Shown here piece by piece: positions 4,849 to 15,553 of a DNA stretch of 33,984 nt (the first letter of the stretch is position 1; each line of letters opens with the position of its first letter). The stretch spans positions 1-33,984 of the IMG/VR virus record IMGVR_UViG_3300044698_000164; one strand, 5' to 3'. Source of the DNA: a virus (Duplodnaviria; Caudoviricetes). A program made the position numbers and the translations under genes. A model generated the notes under the pieces. It was given only the letters and a program-made list of their open reading frames with translations, was not told the origin of the DNA and ran no database searches.

Positions 4849-5346
4849 CTACTCGCCGAGCCGCGGGTGAGCGACGTTCCGGAGGATGTCCCGGATCGCC
4901 TCGACGTCTTTCCGGAGGCTCCCAGCAGTCGATTTCGGTTGCGCCAGAACCGCCACGGCGTAATCGTGTGCGGCCCGGAGCGCGCCCACGGACCGGGCTG
5001 CCTCCTCATACGCGAGGTTCTCCCCGAGCCGCCGCATCGTCCCTTCGGACGCCGTGTAGTCCTGTTCTTCCGTCAAGGTGCCTTGCGCGGTCCGCAGCAC
5101 GTACAGCGCGTTCATCGCTTCCCGGAGCGCGTCCACCTGTTCCCCGGTAGGAACCTCCACCGCGGAAATACGGCACTTCACTACCGCGTCTTTCTCCTCG
5201 TCCGGTGCTGGTTGTGTGCGCTCTGTGTGCTGCAGCTCCACTATCGCGACGGTCCGGCACCCCGGACGGTCATAGATCCCTTTCACATGCGGGCCGAGAA
5301 CGTCACCCGCGCCTTTCCCGATGCCGTCCAGTTTGAGAGTGGTCAC
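4849..5346 (-). CDS. Conserved actinophage hypothetical protein
   Basis: GTGA-coupled; AIVEL...ER...V..RI..VEV...Y..RT..GTL pattern; GC3-rich codons. Confidence 0.7.
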   Translation of the reverse strand: MTTLKLDGIGKGAGDVLGPHVKGIYDRPGCRTVAIVELQHTERTQPAPDEEKDAVVKCRISAVEVPTGEQVDALREAMNALYVLRTAQGTLTEEQDYTASEGTMRRLGENLAYEEAARSVGALRAAHDYAVAVLAQPKSTAGSLRKDVEAIRDILRNVAHPRLGE

Positions 5347-5786
5347 GCCGGATCCTGTTCTGCGAGTAGGGAAATCTGACCGGTCCCCGGTTGAGGGCGG
5401 GTCGCGTGCTCCTCGACCGGACGGAACACCAGCCGCATACCGTCGTACCCGACCCGTTGCGGCGCAACGAAAGTTATCGCGTGCACCCATCTCGGGCCGT
5501 CGTCCGCGAGCACCCCCGAATCGACCACACCGTCAATCGCGCCCTTCGCTGCCAGCGCGCAAGCCAGCGCATCAGCGATGCCCCGGGCCCGGAACTCCTG
5601 CACCGTGATCGTTACCGGGACACGGAACCCCGGGAGCCCGGACGTCTCCTCCTTCGCCCACGCCCGCCACTCCCGGATCTCAGTGCGCCGTATCGGGACC
5701 ACCACGCCGAGCAACTCATTCAGCGTCCCCGGGCGATGCCTCCGCTCGATCCACAACGGCCCGCGCGGGCCCACCGGGCCGGTCAC
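5343..5786 (-). CDS. RusA-like Holliday junction resolvase
   Basis: TLN...WR...V.ITV...D...K.AIDG.VD.GVL.DD..RWV motif. Confidence 0.75.
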   Translation of the reverse strand: MTGPVGPRGPLWIERRHRPGTLNELLGVVVPIRRTEIREWRAWAKEETSGLPGFRVPVTITVQEFRARGIADALACALAAKGAIDGVVDSGVLADDGPRWVHAITFVAPQRVGYDGMRLVFRPVEEHATRPQPGTGQISLLAEQDPA

Positions 5787-9729: not shown

Positions 9730-9944
9730 CAGTCCTGCCTGCGCTCCCACTCGTGGAGCCCGTCGATCGCGGCTCGGGTCAGCGCGCCGTACAGGTCGTC
9801 TCGGTCGAACAGGAGTCCGGTGTACGCGCCGAGCAGGGCAATGAGCATCGACCGGACCGCGGCGCGCCCGTACGTGTGTTCCCGCGCAGCCTGTTCGACC
9901 AGTTCCGCGGCCTTCGCTCGCGCCTGCTCCACAGTGTCGATCAT
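9726..9944 (-). CDS. Hypothetical protein
   Basis: AAAGGA RBS; ATGA coupling. Confidence 0.65.
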   Translation of the reverse strand: MIDTVEQARAKAAELVEQAAREHTYGRAAVRSMLIALLGAYTGLLFDRDDLYGALTRAAIDGLHEWERRQDW

Positions 9945-10171
9945 GGCGTGTGGTCCTTTCGTGGTGTGACGAGCGCGGCCGGGGTCGCCCCGACCAGGTC
10001 AGCGACTGCGAGTAGCTCGCCGAGTCGCCAGGGGACGGCGCCTCGGAGTCTGCCGCGTACCTGCTGGACGGAGATCCCGAGCAGTGCCGCGACGTGCACC
10101 GTGGACACGCCGCGGGTGGTCATCAGGGCCCGCAGGGCCCGGTTGACCTCGGTTATCCGGGGGTCCGTCAT
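9941..10171 (-). CDS. XRE/Cro-like (BetR-like) HTH regulator
   Basis: LRALMTTRGVSTVHVAALLGISVQQVRGRLRGAVPWRLGELLAVADLVG; first gene after the leftward promoter, near-leaderless. Confidence 0.85.
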   Translation of the reverse strand: MTDPRITEVNRALRALMTTRGVSTVHVAALLGISVQQVRGRLRGAVPWRLGELLAVADLVGATPAALVTPRKDHTP

Positions 10172-10179
10172 GCGGCAGG

Positions 10180-10231
10180 ACACTACCCGCGAAAGCTACG
10201 CTTGCGCAAGCCTGGCTTTCGCGCGTATGGT
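10180..10231. promoter_or_regulatory. Divergent promoters sharing a palindromic -35, overlaid by two operators
   Basis: Plus: TTGCGC(10202)-N18-TATGGT(10226). Minus: TTGCGC(10209)-N18-TAGTGT(10185). 36-bp dyad 10188-10223. Confidence 0.75.
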
Positions 10232-10266
10232 CGATCACTGACCATCCCAGACCCTAGGGAGCACCG

Positions 10267-10650
10267 ATGCCAGACACCACCCCGACCCCCGACCAGTACC
10301 CCGGCGCGGACGCCAGCCACTGCACCGGGTGCAACGTCCTCCTGGCGCCCGATGGGCCGGACCACGCGCCCGGGTGCAGGTACCGCCCAGTGATGCCGCC
10401 CGATGACCGGTGCGCGACGTGCCACCGGGACGCCCACCGGCCCGGCATCACGACCACCGACCACGGACACCCCTACCGCGACCCCAGCCTGGTCGAGCCC
10501 GTCACCGACGCTGACGGACTCGTCGTCCCGGACGCGCCCGCCGGGTCCGGCCCGTTCTTCGCCGGCCGGGTCCGCGCGCTGGACTGCCCGCACTACATGG
10601 CGGCCAGCGAGCGCAAGGCCGGGTACCGGGTCTGCGAGCACTGCGCGTGA
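10267..10650 (+). CDS. Cys/His-rich putative zinc-binding protein
   Basis: AGGGAG RBS; CTGC..H...C, CATC...H...H, CPH...CEHC. Confidence 0.7.
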   Translation: MPDTTPTPDQYPGADASHCTGCNVLLAPDGPDHAPGCRYRPVMPPDDRCATCHRDAHRPGITTTDHGHPYRDPSLVEPVTDADGLVVPDAPAGSGPFFAGRVRALDCPHYMAASERKAGYRVCEHCA

Positions 10651-10781
10651 GGCTGCCCGAGTGCACCCGGACCGGTGCCCCGTACGTCACGGATCAACTC
10701 GACGTGCTGCTACTGCAGCTCACCCTGGCAACTGTCGCGTGGTCCGCCCGGTGCGGCCACTACCACGTAGAGAGGTACTGA
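10647..10781 (+). CDS. 44-aa micro-ORF
   Basis: GTGA start overlap and TGATG stop overlap with the LysM gene (VRLPECTRTG...CGHYHVERY). Confidence 0.5.
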   Translation: MRLPECTRTGAPYVTDQLDVLLLQLTLATVAWSARCGHYHVERY

Positions 10782-11311
10782 TGATCACGCCGTTCGTCCT
10801 GGTCCTGCTCACCCTCGCCGGTACCGGCCTCGTCGTCGCCGGTACCGGGCACGCCCGGATCCTGCGCCCGCCCGCGCCGTCCCCGGCCGTCGTCCGGACC
10901 GCGGCCGCCGGGAGCCTGGCCGCCGGGGTCGCGCTCGCCGGTACCGGCACCGCGGCCGCGGACGACGTCACCCCGTGGAGCGTCCGCCGGCCGCCGCCCA
11001 CAGCTACCGCACCCGAGGCCTCCGCACGGCCCGGGCCGGACAACCCGCAGGCCCTCCCGGACGGGTCCGTGTCCATCGACCCGGTACCGGAGGCCCCGGT
11101 GCCCTGGTCGGCTACCCGGGTGGTGCAGCGCGGCCGTGTAGTGGTGGTCAACGTCCACCGTGGGGACACCCTCACCCGGATCGCTGGAGCGAACTGCACC
11201 AGTGTGGTCCAGATAGCTCGAGCCAACCGGACCGCTCACCCGACCCTCGCCAGCAACCCGGACCTGATCCGGCCCGGGTGGCGCCTGACGGTGAAGGGGT
11301 GCCACCGATGA
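10781..11311 (+). CDS. Membrane-anchored/secreted LysM peptidoglycan-binding protein
   Basis: N-terminal hydrophobic segments, Pro-rich linker, C-terminal VHRGDTLTRIA...IARAN...NPDLIRPGWRL. Confidence 0.85.
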   Translation: MITPFVLVLLTLAGTGLVVAGTGHARILRPPAPSPAVVRTAAAGSLAAGVALAGTGTAAADDVTPWSVRRPPPTATAPEASARPGPDNPQALPDGSVSIDPVPEAPVPWSATRVVQRGRVVVVNVHRGDTLTRIAGANCTSVVQIARANRTAHPTLASNPDLIRPGWRLTVKGCHR

Positions 11312-11625
11312 CCGCGACTCTCCTGTCAGACCGGACGCTGGACCTGGCCGGAAACCAGGTCCGGGTCCGGTACTGGGCCAACACCACCCCAGGCGAGTCG
11401 TTCGACCTGGCAACCCTGTCGGTCACCGTGGACTGCCCGGACGTGCCGGCCGTCGCCGCGGCCGCAGAGCAGCGCCTCGGGCCGGATACCGCACTGGTGC
11501 TGGACATCGAAGGTGACCTGTTCGATCTCTTCGGGGCCAACGCTGGCGGATGGATCACGGATCCCATCAACCTGCCCGACCTCGCCGCAGACCTCGGCGT
11601 AGACCCGGGGAGCGTGCTCCCGTGA
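11308..11625 (+). CDS. Acidic hypothetical protein
   Basis: ATGA-coupled; 105 aa. Confidence 0.65.
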   Translation: MTATLLSDRTLDLAGNQVRVRYWANTTPGESFDLATLSVTVDCPDVPAVAAAAEQRLGPDTALVLDIEGDLFDLFGANAGGWITDPINLPDLAADLGVDPGSVLP

Positions 11626-11798
11626 CGTGCCACTGCACGGCCGTCATCGTCCACGGCCACCCCGCACACGAGGGGGTTCCCTGCCGCGAGTTCGCCGCCG
11701 CGGTGTACCCCACGATCGCGGGCCCGCGCGCCGAACTCCGAACCGCGCCCGCGCCCGACGTCGAGCGCGACGACTCCCCCGTCTACGTCCCCGCCTGA
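11622..11798 (+). CDS. Small hypothetical protein (CxC...H..H...C)
   Basis: GGGGAG RBS; GTGA coupling. Confidence 0.5.
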   Translation: MTCHCTAVIVHGHPAHEGVPCREFAAAVYPTIAGPRAELRTAPAPDVERDDSPVYVPA

Positions 11799-11809
11799 CC
11801 CGCCCCGGA

Positions 11810-12418
11810 ATGGACACGCCCCCGATGCTCGCCCTGCTCGCGGCCGCCACGCCGTCACCACCCGCGCCACCCTCGGCCGGGCCACCGCTGCCCGCGCCCG
11901 ACGTCATCGGCCCGGCCGGTGAGTGGCTCCTGCCGGCCCTGCTCCTCGCCGTTGCCCTGGCGCTGGACTACTCCGCGGCCGGCGCGAACGCTCGCCGTGA
12001 CCGCGTCGCGATGCTCCTGACCTATACCGCCGTCCTTGGCTTCGTGGGGATCTACGGGTGGTCCGATGACATCCGGAGGACCGTCGGCGCGTCCTGGTCG
12101 GCGGTCGTGCTCGGGTCGCTCGCGGCGGTGGTCCTGCACCTGCTGATGGTCCATGTGGCGATGCCGGATACCACGGAATGGGGGAAACGATCACGCGCGT
12201 TCCTGCAGGGCCGAGCGGGGTTCTCGTCGAAGGAATCGACAGCGGTCGGCCGGATCAACACCCGATTGCACATCTGGGCGGCCGTGACCGCGGCCAGCTA
12301 CGTGCTGTCCCGCGGGCCGTCCGCTTGGTTCCCGGAGCACATCGCCGGCGCCCTCAACCGTGCGTCGGGGTGGGCTGGTGGCCACCTGATCTATTGGCTC
12401 GGCGGGGGGTGGTGGTGA
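11810..12418 (+). CDS. Polytopic membrane protein (about 4 TM)
   Basis: Several hydrophobic helices; Pro-rich N-terminus. Confidence 0.75.
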   Translation: MDTPPMLALLAAATPSPPAPPSAGPPLPAPDVIGPAGEWLLPALLLAVALALDYSAAGANARRDRVAMLLTYTAVLGFVGIYGWSDDIRRTVGASWSAVVLGSLAAVVLHLLMVHVAMPDTTEWGKRSRAFLQGRAGFSSKESTAVGRINTRLHIWAAVTAASYVLSRGPSAWFPEHIAGALNRASGWAGGHLIYWLGGGWW

Positions 12419-12630
12419 TGTTCGCCCTCGCCGCCGGTGTGGCCCTGCTGTGGCTTGCCGCAGCGCTCTACGTCGGCTACCGCGACCAGGCGCCGATCCT
12501 GTGGGGCCGGGTCCTGCTCCTCGTCACCGCCGGGTACCTCGGTGGCGCGTGGGCAGGGGTGTGGCCGATCGACAGTGCCACGCCGGCGGCCCGGTGGGTG
12601 CTGGGGTGGCTGGGAGCGTGGCCGCAGTGA
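12418..12630 (+). CDS. Small 2-TM membrane protein
   Basis: TGATG coupling; Trp/Leu-rich. Confidence 0.65.
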   Translation: MFALAAGVALLWLAAALYVGYRDQAPILWGRVLLLVTAGYLGGAWAGVWPIDSATPAARWVLGWLGAWPQ

Positions 12631-13082
12631 CCGGCGACAGCATCGGCGCGACCCTCGCCCTGGTCGCCGCGGTCTACGCCGTCGGGGTGGCCAACCGGGG
12701 GTGGACATCGCCCCTGGACATCTGGCACGCGGCCACTGGACATCGCTGGTGTGGACACGATGAGTGCTGGTCAGACCCGGTGGACGGCCCCGACGTCCAA
12801 AACCAGCCCGCCGATGTCCAGACGTCCACCCCCGGTCCGTTGCGGCCGCCCGAGACCCTGGTCCACCCCATGACCGGGCCGGGGCCGCTGCCAGGCCAGC
12901 CGGTCACCGACCGGATCCCGCACGAGACCCGGATCGCGTGGGTCCGCCGGCAACTGGAGGCCGGGGTTCTCGGCCCGGGGGACATCGACGCGCTGGGCGC
13001 CGAACAGTTCGCGGTGTCCGAACGGCAGGTGCGCCGGTGGCGCGCGGCACTCGGCGACGACAGGAAAGGATCACCGGCATGA
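12627..13082 (+). CDS. Membrane-anchored protein with C-terminal HTH
   Basis: N-terminal TM (IGATLALVAAVYAVGVA), Pro-rich linker, IDALGAEQFAVSERQVRRWRAAL. Confidence 0.7.
   Translation: MTGDSIGATLALVAAVYAVGVANRGWTSPLDIWHAATGHRWCGHDECWSDPVDGPDVQNQPADVQTSTPGPLRPPETLVHPMTGPGPLPGQPVTDRIPHETRIAWVRRQLEAGVLGPGDIDALGAEQFAVSERQVRRWRAALGDDRKGSPA
12702..12828. repeat. TGGAC(A/G)TC octamer array, direct then inverted
   Basis: Forward 12702, 12715, 12737 (three different codon phases), near-copy 12752; reverse 12792, 12813, 12821. Confidence 0.75.
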
Positions 13083-13222
13083 AGGCTGTAGACGTGCTCG
13101 CCGCGGTGGAAGACGCGCTCGCGGTCCGCGATGAGCTGGTGGCGCGCGGCGAACCGATGGGCAGCGCGCTCGTCATCACCGGGTGCGCGCTCGGGGTCCT
13201 CATGGCTGGAGCGCGCACGTGA
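13079..13222 (+). CDS. 47-aa protein with C-terminal hydrophobic segment
   Basis: AAAGGA RBS; ATGA/GTGA coupling. Confidence 0.6.
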   Translation: MKAVDVLAAVEDALAVRDELVARGEPMGSALVITGCALGVLMAGART

Positions 13223-13970
13223 CCGCGCGCGCGCTCCCGCGCTGGCCCCTCCTGGTCATCGCGCTACCGGCCGCCGTGTCGGTGTGGGCTGGGTGGGTAG
13301 GCCTCGGCCAGGCCTGCGGATTCGGGGTGGTCCACCCGCTACCGGGCACCCCGCTCGCGCACTGGCGCGTCGATACCGCCATCACCCTGCCGATCGGGAT
13401 CGAGGCATATGGCGCGTACGCGCTGCGCGTGTGGCTCGGTGAGCGCGCCGACGCGCGCACGGTCCGGTTCGCCCGGGCGAGCGCGGTCGGCGCGCTGGTG
13501 CTGGGCATGGCCGGGCAGGTCGCGTACCACCTGCTGCAGTCCGGTGGCCACGCGCGGGCGCCGCTCCCGCTGGTCGCGCTGGTCGGGGTGCTCCCGGTCG
13601 GTGTGCTCGGTCTGGCGGCCGCGCTGTGGCATCTGGTGTCCAGCGCGGACGCGCTCCCGGTGCCCGCGCCAGCCGCGCCCGAGCAGCGCGCCGACGAGCG
13701 CGCGCCGCGCCAGCCGGGCGAGCGCGCCGCGCCACCGGAGCGCGCGCCAGAGCCGGACGGCGAGCGCGCCCCGGTGCGCCTGCTGGCCCCGGTGGCGCGG
13801 CGCGCTCGTGCGCGTCCGGTGGACGCGTCCGGGCTGGAGGATGCGCGCGCCGAGTGGGAGCGCGCCGAGCGTGGCCCGGCCCCGATGACCGGTGCGCGCC
13901 TGGCGGCCGCGCTCGGGTGCTCCGAAGGGCACGCGCGGAAGGTCGCGCAGGGCTGGCGCGCCGAGCGCGC
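13164..13970. repeat. GAGCGCGC octamer array (12 copies, both strands)
   Basis: Forward 13209, 13441, 13696, 13720, 13738, 13762, 13858, 13963; reverse 13164, 13185, 13229, 13800. Confidence 0.6.
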
Positions 13971-13998
13971 GCGGGAGGTTGAGAGCGCGTCCGGGTGA
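13219..13998 (+). CDS. SpdA/DUF2637-like 4-TM protein with C-terminal HTH (actinomycete plasmid/AICE family)
   Basis: WPLLVIALPAAVSVWAGWVGLG..CGFG.VHPLPG...DTAITLPIGIEAYGAYALRVWL...LG..GQVAYHLL...LPV.VLG; HTH TGARLAAALGCSEGHARKV. Confidence 0.75.
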   Translation: MTARALPRWPLLVIALPAAVSVWAGWVGLGQACGFGVVHPLPGTPLAHWRVDTAITLPIGIEAYGAYALRVWLGERADARTVRFARASAVGALVLGMAGQVAYHLLQSGGHARAPLPLVALVGVLPVGVLGLAAALWHLVSSADALPVPAPAAPEQRADERAPRQPGERAAPPERAPEPDGERAPVRLLAPVARRARARPVDASGLEDARAEWERAERGPAPMTGARLAAALGCSEGHARKVAQGWRAERAREVESASG

Positions 13999-14003
13999 CC
14001 GTG

Positions 14004-14036
14004 TTGACCACCAGCGCGCGAAAGGTGTACCTTCGC
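14004..14036 (+). promoter_or_regulatory. SigA/HrdB-like promoter with overlapping operator
   Basis: TTGACC(14004)-N18-TACCTT(14028); GCGAAAG-N5-CCTTCGC 14018-14036 covers the -10; AGGAGG RBS downstream. Confidence 0.75.
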
Positions 14037-14085
14037 AGTATCGCCACTCAAGGGCAACCGGGCCCGCTCTCAGGAGGAAACCGAA

Positions 14086-14391
14086 ATGACCAAAACCACC
14101 ACGCTCGTGCTGGACATCTGCACCCCGGAGGGAAAGACCTGGTGCGCTGCGATCACGGCACTTGGCGGCCGCTACGGATTCGAGCGTGACTTTGTCAACG
14201 CCGTGCAGCGCCGGACGTCGCGGTCCGGCATGACCGGGGCAGCCACATATGAACTGGAGGACGGGCCGTACGCCACGTGCGAGGGCCGACGTCGGCTCGG
14301 CCGCCGGTACTGGATCATCCGTGACGGTGCCGCGACCAAAGTCGACTCGGCAAAGCTCGCGTTTGCGGCGTTCGCTGTGGACGCGTCGTGA
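14086..14391 (+). CDS. Hypothetical phage protein
   Basis: Strong AGGAGG RBS; W.A.I...G.YG..R.F pattern. Confidence 0.8.
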   Translation: MTKTTTLVLDICTPEGKTWCAAITALGGRYGFERDFVNAVQRRTSRSGMTGAATYELEDGPYATCEGRRRLGRRYWIIRDGAATKVDSAKLAFAAFAVDAS

Positions 14392-14756
14392 GCCTGCCCG
14401 TCCCGACCTTCTACGAGCACCGGGACATGATGGCCGCTGCGCTGGCCTTCCAAGGGCCGGGAGAAGTCGTCACCCACGCTGACATCGTGACCGCCCTGAC
14501 CGATGCTGGGATCTTCCACCGGGTCTGGGAGCTGGGGCCCCGGGACTGGTACCCGGACGGCGTCAACGAGGTGATCATCTACGACTGTGACGGGTACATC
14601 TACGGATTCATGCCTGGCCGCACTCTGGAGAATGCGACGCGTGACGGCATCCGTGTCCGTCCCACGGGCCTTCCGGGTGGCGCCGAACGGTGGGTGCCGA
14701 CCATCGCAGACATGATCATTTCCGCCCTGTACATCGTCCGCCCGGACCTGCCGTGA
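14388..14756 (+). CDS. Hypothetical protein
   Basis: GTGA-coupled; 122 aa; globular composition. Confidence 0.7.
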   Translation: MSLPVPTFYEHRDMMAAALAFQGPGEVVTHADIVTALTDAGIFHRVWELGPRDWYPDGVNEVIIYDCDGYIYGFMPGRTLENATRDGIRVRPTGLPGGAERWVPTIADMIISALYIVRPDLP

Positions 14757-15142
14757 ACGCGCCGACCAGCATCGTCACGGCCGGCAACGTGGTCCTGGCC
14801 GCACTCGACGCGCGGCGGGCGCTGGGCCCCGACCGCGGCGCCGTTGAAATGTCCTGGGAGTTCGGGGGTGGCGGTTCGCTGTGGGAGCTGGACGGCGAGC
14901 CGGTGCCGGACGCGGACGTCATCCGGTGGTTCGTCGACGGTCGCCCGGTGGCCGCTTGCGCGCCGCGCCCGCGCCGTCCGATGGCACCGGCCGAGGTCGC
15001 GCTGCGGGTCCTGTCGATGTGGTGCCTGACCGACCCGCAGGGGTATCCGTACTCGCTGACCATGATTCCTGGGGGCCCGCGCGGCGAGTACCCCGAGGTC
15101 ATGATCAGTTCCGGTAACACCGTCGTCGTGAATTGGGAGTGA
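14753..15142 (+). CDS. Hypothetical protein
   Basis: GTGA-coupled; 129 aa. Confidence 0.65.
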   Translation: MNAPTSIVTAGNVVLAALDARRALGPDRGAVEMSWEFGGGGSLWELDGEPVPDADVIRWFVDGRPVAACAPRPRRPMAPAEVALRVLSMWCLTDPQGYPYSLTMIPGGPRGEYPEVMISSGNTVVVNWE

Positions 15143-15144
15143 TC

Positions 15145-15504
15145 ATGACTGGTGCCGACGCGTACGCCGCATATGAGGCAGCCATGGCCGAGCACCTGGC
15201 CGCGACCCGCACGGTGATGGATCATGCCGTGTGCGACAGCAACCGGTACGGGGACCGCCTGCTGGGCGCCGAAGCTTGGGCCCTCAACCGGGCCCGGGAG
15301 ATCCTCGCCGAGCACCAGAACCGGTGGACCCGGTACGCCGAGCGCGCTCGGGCGATCCACGGCGCACCCGACCCCGGGCCAGACCCCAGCTGGGCCCTCA
15401 GGACCGAAGGTCCGTCGGCTGACTTCCGCACGTGCATGAACGGCTGGCGCGCACAGCTGAACGAGTTGCGCGACCTGTGGCGCGCTCACCTCGGCGCGCT
15501 CTGA
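15145..15504 (+). CDS. Helical hypothetical protein
   Basis: GGGAG RBS; 119 aa; ends just before the terminator. Confidence 0.7.
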   Translation: MTGADAYAAYEAAMAEHLAATRTVMDHAVCDSNRYGDRLLGAEAWALNRAREILAEHQNRWTRYAERARAIHGAPDPGPDPSWALRTEGPSADFRTCMNGWRAQLNELRDLWRAHLGAL

Positions 15505-15517
15505 CCCCAGCACTCAG

Positions 15518-15553
15518 CGGGCCCCGACCTCGGGTGAGGTCGGGGCCCGTTTC
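15518..15553 (+). terminator. Intrinsic terminator between the convergent operons
   Basis: CGGGCCCCGACCTC-gggt-GAGGTCGGGGCCCG followed by TTTC. Confidence 0.85.

Follow-up and report, generated by a model that had tools for sequence, protein, structure and literature searches.

A putative pump-less spread operon with an SpdB2-like gene in a tailed phage from sediment

The sediment phage record IMGVR_UViG_3300044698_000164, whose entire 33,984 bases form the window analysed here, carries on its plus strand (10267-13998) a block of ten open reading frames (ORFs) located between leftward early genes and leftward lysis genes. We propose, at what we judge to be an even chance of being right, that this operon is a spd module devoid of its own pump, which would act as a membrane tether aiding phage DNA along the hypha, any motor being borrowed from the host. 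Pump-less spread genes in actinophages have already been published (phiC31 and VWB; PMC4447253). What is new here is a recurring cassette marked by a membrane family that we call c78, the presence of this cassette in complete genomes that lack an integrase, and a signal of word arrays inside the genes that is family-wide and was measured against controls.

The reference protein, SpdB2, has been described as a four-helix membrane protein that forms pores, binds peptidoglycan and DNA, and is required together with TraB for intramycelial spread; its homologues in phiC31 and VWB were suggested in 2015 to possibly assist the spreading of phage DNA (PMC4447253). We found no test of this suggestion in the literature searched, which consisted mostly of open-access articles.

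An SpdB2-like protein from conjugative elements

The last gene of the operon (13219-13998) belongs to a family with at least 1821 relatives. The structural model of its product (pLDDT 83) predicts helices at residues 9-32, 53-73, 79-108, and 116-144, followed by a three-helix helix-turn-helix (HTH) domain at 203-258, that is, the four membrane helices and C-terminal DNA-binding part expected of an SpdB2-type protein. HTH families were recognized in up to 13 of 66 family members. Among viral fold matches (Foldseek), a P1312-like protein, recognised by its length and identity, was followed by phiC31 gp25 (E 7.5e-3) and by a DUF2637 protein (E 1.1e-2), and a PDB search with the model gave no match at E<=0.001.

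The genomic context of the family supports the earlier proposal of an origin in actinomycete conjugative elements. A TraB/FtsK gene lies within 6.5 kb of the family member in 57 of the 71 chromosomal loci and in 24 of the 34 viral ones, and many of the chromosomal ones also contain an integrase (50 loci) and a Prim-Pol gene (38 loci), the layout of AICEs, the integrative and conjugative elements of actinomycetes (PMC2440964). At the level of the family, these genes are thus encoded beside traB in conjugative elements. The chromosomal loci were the best 80 of 537, nine of which were dropped, as were 22 of the 56 viral loci, for being duplicates, having no called gene, or having less than 3 kb of flank. 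The TraB, integrase, and DUF-slot labels come from profiles built on these same loci and checked on representatives, and the TraB cluster representatives matched the plasmid TraB model NF041214 weakly (E 3.4e-4 and 8.2e-7). Locus scans with the single proteins 13219-13998 and P0002 found nothing.

Architecture and context make this protein SpdB2-like, a putative member of that family, and its membrane architecture fits SpdB2 better than an SpdA of the pSVH1/pIJ101 type. We prefer this name because the four-helix membrane protein is SpdB2 whereas the sps-binding protein is SpdA2 in the published accounts (PMC4447253, PMC4170104). SpdA-type genes lie between rep and sso of rolling-circle plasmids, and no rolling-circle replicon was present among the Pfam families found.

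Some relatives have their HTH at the N-terminus (L013, 9698-10426; L012, 9644-10417), and that of L013 and L160 resembles the FtsK gamma domain (E 5.5e-4).

The c78 cassette in actinophages and prophages

c78 is an unnamed membrane family of 76 representatives that marks a cassette in actinophages and prophages. The operon gene 11825-12418 matches the profile of its prophage subfamily (probability 96%, E 4e-9), which makes it a c78 member. Fold searches with c78 gave nothing clear (best Foldseek E 0.55, best Z 6.0) and no match was found in plasmids. In the relatives, the cassette consists, in this order, of a gene in the SpdB2 slot, a soluble protein (c138), c78, a transmembrane (TM)-linker-HTH protein (c249) and, at times, FtsK. 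The SpdB2 slot is filled either by the family of 13219-13998 or by Pfam DUF2637 proteins (six loci above the cut-off). Of 401 genomes from the family of a Micromonospora genome, 22 contained the cassette, mostly in prophages and between int and the lysis genes.

Genes for FtsK occur in actinophages (PMC10117723). A pump is not a regular component of this cassette. FtsK was present in only nine of the 40 c78 loci with enough flank (15 of 55 were left out for short downstream flank), the other 31 being pump-less with conserved gene order. Where checked, the cassette FtsK has the alpha and gamma domains of the chromosomal type. In one locus (L159) FtsK and a c249-type anchor form a single fusion protein (E 9e-7), and another locus (L237) is an AICE-like element. 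A complex prediction for c78 and c249 of a relative (L149, paired alignments) scored 0.00 and counts neither way.

Two variants were seen among these loci. In the DUF2637 proteins of L158 (4057-4806), L161, L175, and L176, it is the second half of the sequence that matches the profile, over its first third only, which suggests that the helix order is circularly permuted. In L164, L166, and L180 the genomic slot is another one: c138, c78, and a truncated c249 directly follow a large terminase-like gene.

Word arrays inside the membrane-HTH genes

The SpdB2-like gene contains 21 copies of AGCGCG, compared with 4.5 in a synonymous null model in which none of 2000 recodings reached 21 (maximum 12). 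Similarly, GCGCGC occurs 26 times in 13119-14085 (1.4 expected), the most enriched segment of the genome. The complete array has 27 AGCGCG copies, of which 11 are in the conserved membrane-coding part, 10 in the linker and HTH part, and six outside 13219-13998. Since they occupy both strands and five frame classes, they do not result from simple in-frame linker duplication. This array lends support to the idea, put forward in the original prediction, that the operon acts as a tether, and we consider it likely from this analysis that the HTH of the SpdB2-like protein binds the array in its own gene. The gene in the c249 slot (12627-13082) has a weak TGGACA array (p 0.033).

Such arrays recur in the relatives, which in this survey are not independent of one another: the best 6-mer beat all 40 synonymous nulls in 30 of 55 SpdB2-like, 23 of 34 c249, and 13 of 19 DUF2637-slot genes (66/108). 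Among control genes the same was true for four of 41 c78, one of 25 lysin, and five of 25 integrase genes (10/91). The word itself varies among SpdB2-like genes, and GTGTCA is present in 18 of the 34 c249 genes. The literature searched contained no report of intragenic arrays in phage spd genes.

The rep gene has repeats of its own at 2792-2955, where an origin-like block contains six GAGCGCAGTA iterons (three direct at 22-bp spacing, the others inverted) and, among them, three DnaA-box matches (2899, 2911, and 2923). The core of this iteron resembles the AGCGCG word.

Operon organization and control signals

The ten ORFs, delimited by codon-model gene calling, overlap stop to start at eight of their nine junctions, the exception being that from 11798 to 11825. 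Hydropathy detects a membrane segment in six of them (starting at 10781, 11825, 12418, 12627, 13079, and 13219), and the other four are soluble proteins of 127, 44, 105, and 58 aa. The coupled operon of a LysM protein, three membrane proteins, and two TM-HTH proteins described previously is therefore confirmed, with the addition of the four soluble ORFs that it had omitted. Its placement at the usual position of cI and int also stands, since both genes occur there in relatives such as L012. The region comprises the following features:

9941..10171, minus strand: Cro-position HTH regulator (PHROG 4583, E 5.9e-13; Pfam BetR/HTH_26)
10179..10232: 54-bp palindrome (inverted repeat I14), parsed as predicted back-to-back promoters sharing the -35 region TTGCGCAA
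10267..10650, plus strand: soluble Cys/His-rich protein, 127 aa, no family (gene calling, Pfam, PHROG, hydropathy)
10647..10781, plus strand: 44-aa ORF, no family (gene calling, Pfam)
10781..11311, plus strand: N-terminally anchored LysM protein, 176 aa (Pfam LysM, E 5.2e-6)
11308..11625, plus strand: soluble 105-aa ORF, no family (gene calling, Pfam)
11622..11798, plus strand: 58-aa ORF, no family (gene calling, Pfam)
11825..12418, plus strand: polytopic membrane protein, 197 aa, divergent c78 member (profile match; model pLDDT 84)
12418..12630, plus strand: 70-aa membrane protein (gene calling, hydropathy)
12627..13082, plus strand: TM-linker-HTH protein, 151 aa, in the c249 slot (mainly position; weak TGGACA array)
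13079..13222, plus strand: 47-aa membrane ORF with five AGCGCG copies (gene calling, hydropathy, word count)
13219..13998, plus strand: SpdB2-like protein, 259 aa, with predicted four-helix membrane bundle, flexible linker, and C-terminal HTH (model, neighbours)
13114..14018, both strands: array of 27 AGCGCG words, putative docking site of the SpdB2-like HTH
14004..14036, plus strand: second predicted promoter (TTGACC-18-TACCTT) and third operator-like site, heading a four-gene unit (14086-15504)
15516..15551, plus strand: terminator-like hairpin (16-pair stem, -36.2 kcal/mol), separating the plus-strand region from the lysis genes

NCBIfam contains no family for the operon proteins. The LysM protein is predicted to be a genome-specific cell-wall anchor; its gene, which lies outside the conserved cassette, found no relative other than itself among 5169 candidates and no phage match. 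A cluster of GGTACC/CCGGTA words lies in and ahead of this gene (10379-11090, with eight CCGGTA compared with 0.7 expected), due in part to three duplicated AGTG peptides.

The regulator at 9941..10171 is a single HTH gene, the first of the leftward early unit, divergent from the operon and with no cI after it. It is predicted to bind an operator shared by both transcription units. The palindrome between them holds two overlapping 19-bp operator-like palindromes (10189 and 10204), which are two of just six TTG..TA..T matches in the genome, a consensus derived from these two sites and that of the 14004 promoter. The core 8-mer of these sites, CGCGAAAG, occurs three times (0.98 expected), a weak enrichment that eight of 100 shuffles reach, and a strict sigma-70 scan found no promoter at 10179..10232. 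One putative operator thus seems to span both divergent promoters, and a repressor bound there would shut both directions, from which we infer early lytic expression of the operon instead of a lysogen-specific unit. With cI and int both missing and one operator on both promoters, the phage is most likely non-lysogenising. We rejected the 54-bp palindrome as an N15-type telomere: it parses as two promoters and the Pfam scan found no protelomerase family.

The right boundary of the operon at 13998, as originally placed, is sound since the promoter predicted at 14004 opens a separate unit and the 15516-15551 hairpin closes the block. The four genes of that unit encode soluble orphans, and their sole match is a weak one to PHROG 26647.

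Genome completeness, missing functions, and host

A Pfam scan of the ORFs identified a capsid, portal, protease, tail tube, tape measure, amidase, RecE-like protein, WhiB, and rep. The original prediction took the genome as apparently complete, a view challenged by the 'linear' class of the record and by a CheckV completeness of 47%. Nevertheless, the start of terL lies 467 bp from one terminus and the stop of an HNH-like gene 61 bp from the other. In the closest named terL relatives, terL is gene 2 and its match starts at position 522-620, near the genome end. Three of five IMG/VR relatives start 470-487 bp ahead of their terL match, and the end layout of G451, rated 100% complete, matches that of the present record. 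Because of this HNH...terS-terL end layout, as in the relatives, we judge the genome probably complete despite the CheckV value. In addition, a contig from a second study shows zero differences over 10507-13794, so the operon core is not misassembled. The HNH gene is preceded by a 355-aa coiled-coil protein (463-1530) with weak SMC-like matches.

As noted at the outset, no integrase, ParA, or FtsK-type ATPase was found. PF00589, PF00239, PF01580, and PF13614 had no match in the whole record (zero prefilter candidates each), Pfam scans of 116 + 16 ORFs detected no recombinase, ParA, ParB, or FtsK family, and no Walker A motif ([GA]xxxxGK[ST]) occurs in any of the six frames. The record, a tailed phage, thus contains neither the FtsK-like TraB ATPase of TraB/Spd conjugation, nor the int/xis and replication module of an AICE, nor the ParA Walker ATPase and ParB of a parABS plasmid prophage. 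Integration by dif/XerCD was also rejected: six two-mismatch dif matches were found (2.1 expected), none at the operon and three in rep and early genes.

The host is likely a filamentous actinomycete, because the named chromosomal carriers of the 13219-13998 family are mostly such bacteria (Kribbella, Nocardia, Saccharopolyspora, Kineosporia, Micromonospora, and their kin). Among the 50 virus records of at least 30 kb (out of 72) that carry either gene of the cassette, 30 encode a tyrosine integrase, 18 a serine recombinase or resolvase, 40 at least one of these, and one a ParA. The cassette therefore does not replace integration. Neither recombinase family is present in four of 18 near-complete carriers. 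One complete cos-type phage (G451) is a close parallel: it has related head genes and carries the cassette between lysis and early genes, without integrase, cI, or pump. Another complete phage of 36.5 kb with terminal repeats (G423, loci L245 and L246) has an SpdB2-like gene and TraB with no integrase, resolvase, or ParA match, and is a candidate small conjugative phage.

Proposed role of the operon and alternatives

We propose that the C-terminal HTH of the SpdB2-like protein would bind the array, as pIJ101 SpdA2 binds sps in its own gene, while its four-helix domain would form oligomers in the membrane, as is the case for pSVH1 SpdB2. With c78, the small membrane proteins, and the LysM protein, it may form a wall-anchored platform. 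Binding of the array would hold phage DNA at the membrane and likely aid its passage between hyphal compartments. The motor, if any, would be borrowed from the host, since some relatives have a host-type FtsK gene straight behind the cassette; FtsK and SffA are the names of such host-type translocases. With the module active early in its lytic cycle, the phage would colonise more of the mycelium.

Several points weigh against this proposal, besides the CheckV estimate, the 'linear' class, and the non-independence of the surveyed relatives given above. Both the host and the lifestyle of the phage are inferred. Three other genes of the window, out of 40, also reach the floor p value for word arrays, and such arrays can stem from local duplication in low-complexity linkers. 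Compared with its relatives, the operon has a different gene order and c138 was not found in the window (best match E 0.026, 7 bits). The HTH of 12627-13082 is not significantly related to the c249 profile (pairwise E 0.0023, probability 13%; E 0.05 in 5141 proteins) and the Atlas gave no usable match for it; position and layout mainly, and weakly, suggest the equivalence. The 'SpdA/DUF2637-type' label originally given to 13219-13998 survives in part: fold and context point that way, but the architecture is SpdB2-like and the DUF2637 profile missed it. No Pfam family matches at E<=0.1, the curated cut-off of DUF2637 (PF10935) is not reached, and DUF2637 is absent among the 25 families listed, of 66, for 66 members of the 13219-13998 family. 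Direct profile alignment is weak (hhalign E 0.0068, probability 5.6%, 88 columns in register with eight sequences), and Atlas scores of 0.87-0.89 to DUF2637 are leads only, so that the link appears structural and weak. Finally, spreading of pSVH1 requires TraB, and SpdB2 has been reported to bind DNA non-specifically (PMC4447253).

The main rival explanation, rather unlikely in our view, is an unintegrated plasmid prophage in which the tether serves as partition or stability system in place of int or parAB. It agrees with a probably complete genome without integrase or ParA match, with the four near-complete carriers devoid of both recombinase families, and with the iterons and DnaA boxes at 2792-2955, which fit an autonomous origin. 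Moreover, spdB2 stabilises the linear plasmid SLP2 and SpdA2/sps stabilises pIJ101, as reported in PMC4170104. However, with no repressor at the cI position and an operator covering both promoters, we see no obvious state with lytic genes off and the operon on. The 40 of 50 carriers with an integrase or resolvase show that the cassette is not tied to plasmid life, and lambda-like phages, too, normally have iterons within their rep genes. The integrase or resolvase of these carriers, the missing repressor, the single operator, and the prevalence of the pump-less form (31/40) weaken the original view of the operon as a substitute for int or parAB that keeps a prophage extrachromosomal.

An unlikely extension would be a pump-less 'membrane centromere', in which membrane-HTH proteins bind arrays in their own genes and hand the DNA to the host septal translocase, allowing a phage without integrase, repressor, or parAB to persist and spread virion-free.

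Less probable still is a superinfection-exclusion or envelope-modifying cassette with purely autoregulatory word arrays. The operon does occupy an accessory-gene position between immunity and lysis genes, its surface LysM protein and several small membrane proteins would suit such a role, and intragenic sites could act like operators. Such a cassette does not account for the close association with TraB/FtsK in AICEs and phages, and no exclusion protein was seen among the family or fold matches, a search of which the PADLOC library was not part. That the operon is a leftover AICE transfer region with traB lost and no current role, as the missing pump, integrase, and c138 and the lack of detected relatives for the four soluble ORFs and the LysM gene might suggest, is very improbable since the coupled ORFs show no disruption, nor do the promoter and the array, a second study recovered an identical operon core, and the pump-less form recurs with conserved order in 31 of 40 loci.

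Comparison with known systems

The pump-less tether that we favour has an architectural parallel in the spdB3-spd79-spdB2 operon of pSVH1 (Streptomyces venezuelae), which also has coupled small membrane genes, a cell-wall-binding partner, and a protein integral to the membrane with four helices and a DNA-binding C-terminal part. The likeness is one of architecture; the present operon has no TraB or TraR, resides in a virion-encoding genome, and, in contrast with the non-specific DNA binding reported for SpdB2, has a word array in its gene.

Among phages, phiC31 gp25 shares with 13219-13998 the membrane helices, a Pro-rich linker, and a C-terminal HTH-like segment, and it is probably the phiC31 SpdB2 homologue meant in PMC4447253. 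HMM (hidden Markov model) comparison of the phiC31 genes with the family profiles gave nothing significant. Like the present phage, phiC31 has no annotated TraB, but it has an integrase, a repressor, and one such gene, whereas the present phage lacks integrase and repressor and has ten genes in its operon, among them c78, a second TM-HTH protein, and LysM. The Micromonospora phage pMLP1 (CP058906) and related prophages also have an SpdB2-slot gene, c78, and c249 between immunity and lysis genes, and pMLP1 has no FtsK within 10 kb. It differs in having an integrase, cI, and GntR regulators, another SpdB2-slot family and gene order, and no LysM protein. A divergent GntR-UTRA regulator adjoins its cassette, the arrangement of TraR/KorSA. 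In L148, a Pycsar-effector-like membrane gene of pMLP1 (5343-5786; PycTM, E 1.6e-5) is inserted within the cassette.

Conjugation-type genes are also carried by the Thermobifida phage P1312 (PMC4569894) and by the plasmid-phage pZL12 (as cited in PMC3583192). Unlike the present phage, both have an FtsK/Tra pump, and P1312 a serine integrase as well. P1312 ORF62 belongs to the same family as 13219-13998, lies beside FtsK, and has its own word array. Finally, the proposed binding resembles that of pIJ101 SpdA2 to the sps palindrome inside its own gene (PMC4170104). The sps site is a single palindrome and the clt repeats of pWTY27 (PMC3583192) are bound by the pump; in the present phage, the array consists of dispersed 6-mers in the gene of a membrane protein predicted to bind it. 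TGACAC, the c249 word of the relatives, also occurs within the pWTY27 clt repeat TGACACC, which may be due to chance.

Implications for phages of filamentous bacteria

The cassette, the c78 family, and a predicted DNA site for each membrane-HTH protein make the published speculation on SpdB2 homologues in actinophages directly testable. If our proposal is true, phages of filamentous bacteria would have a virion-free route across cross-walls without a pump of their own, which would bear on soil phage ecology and on vector stability in industrial actinomycetes.

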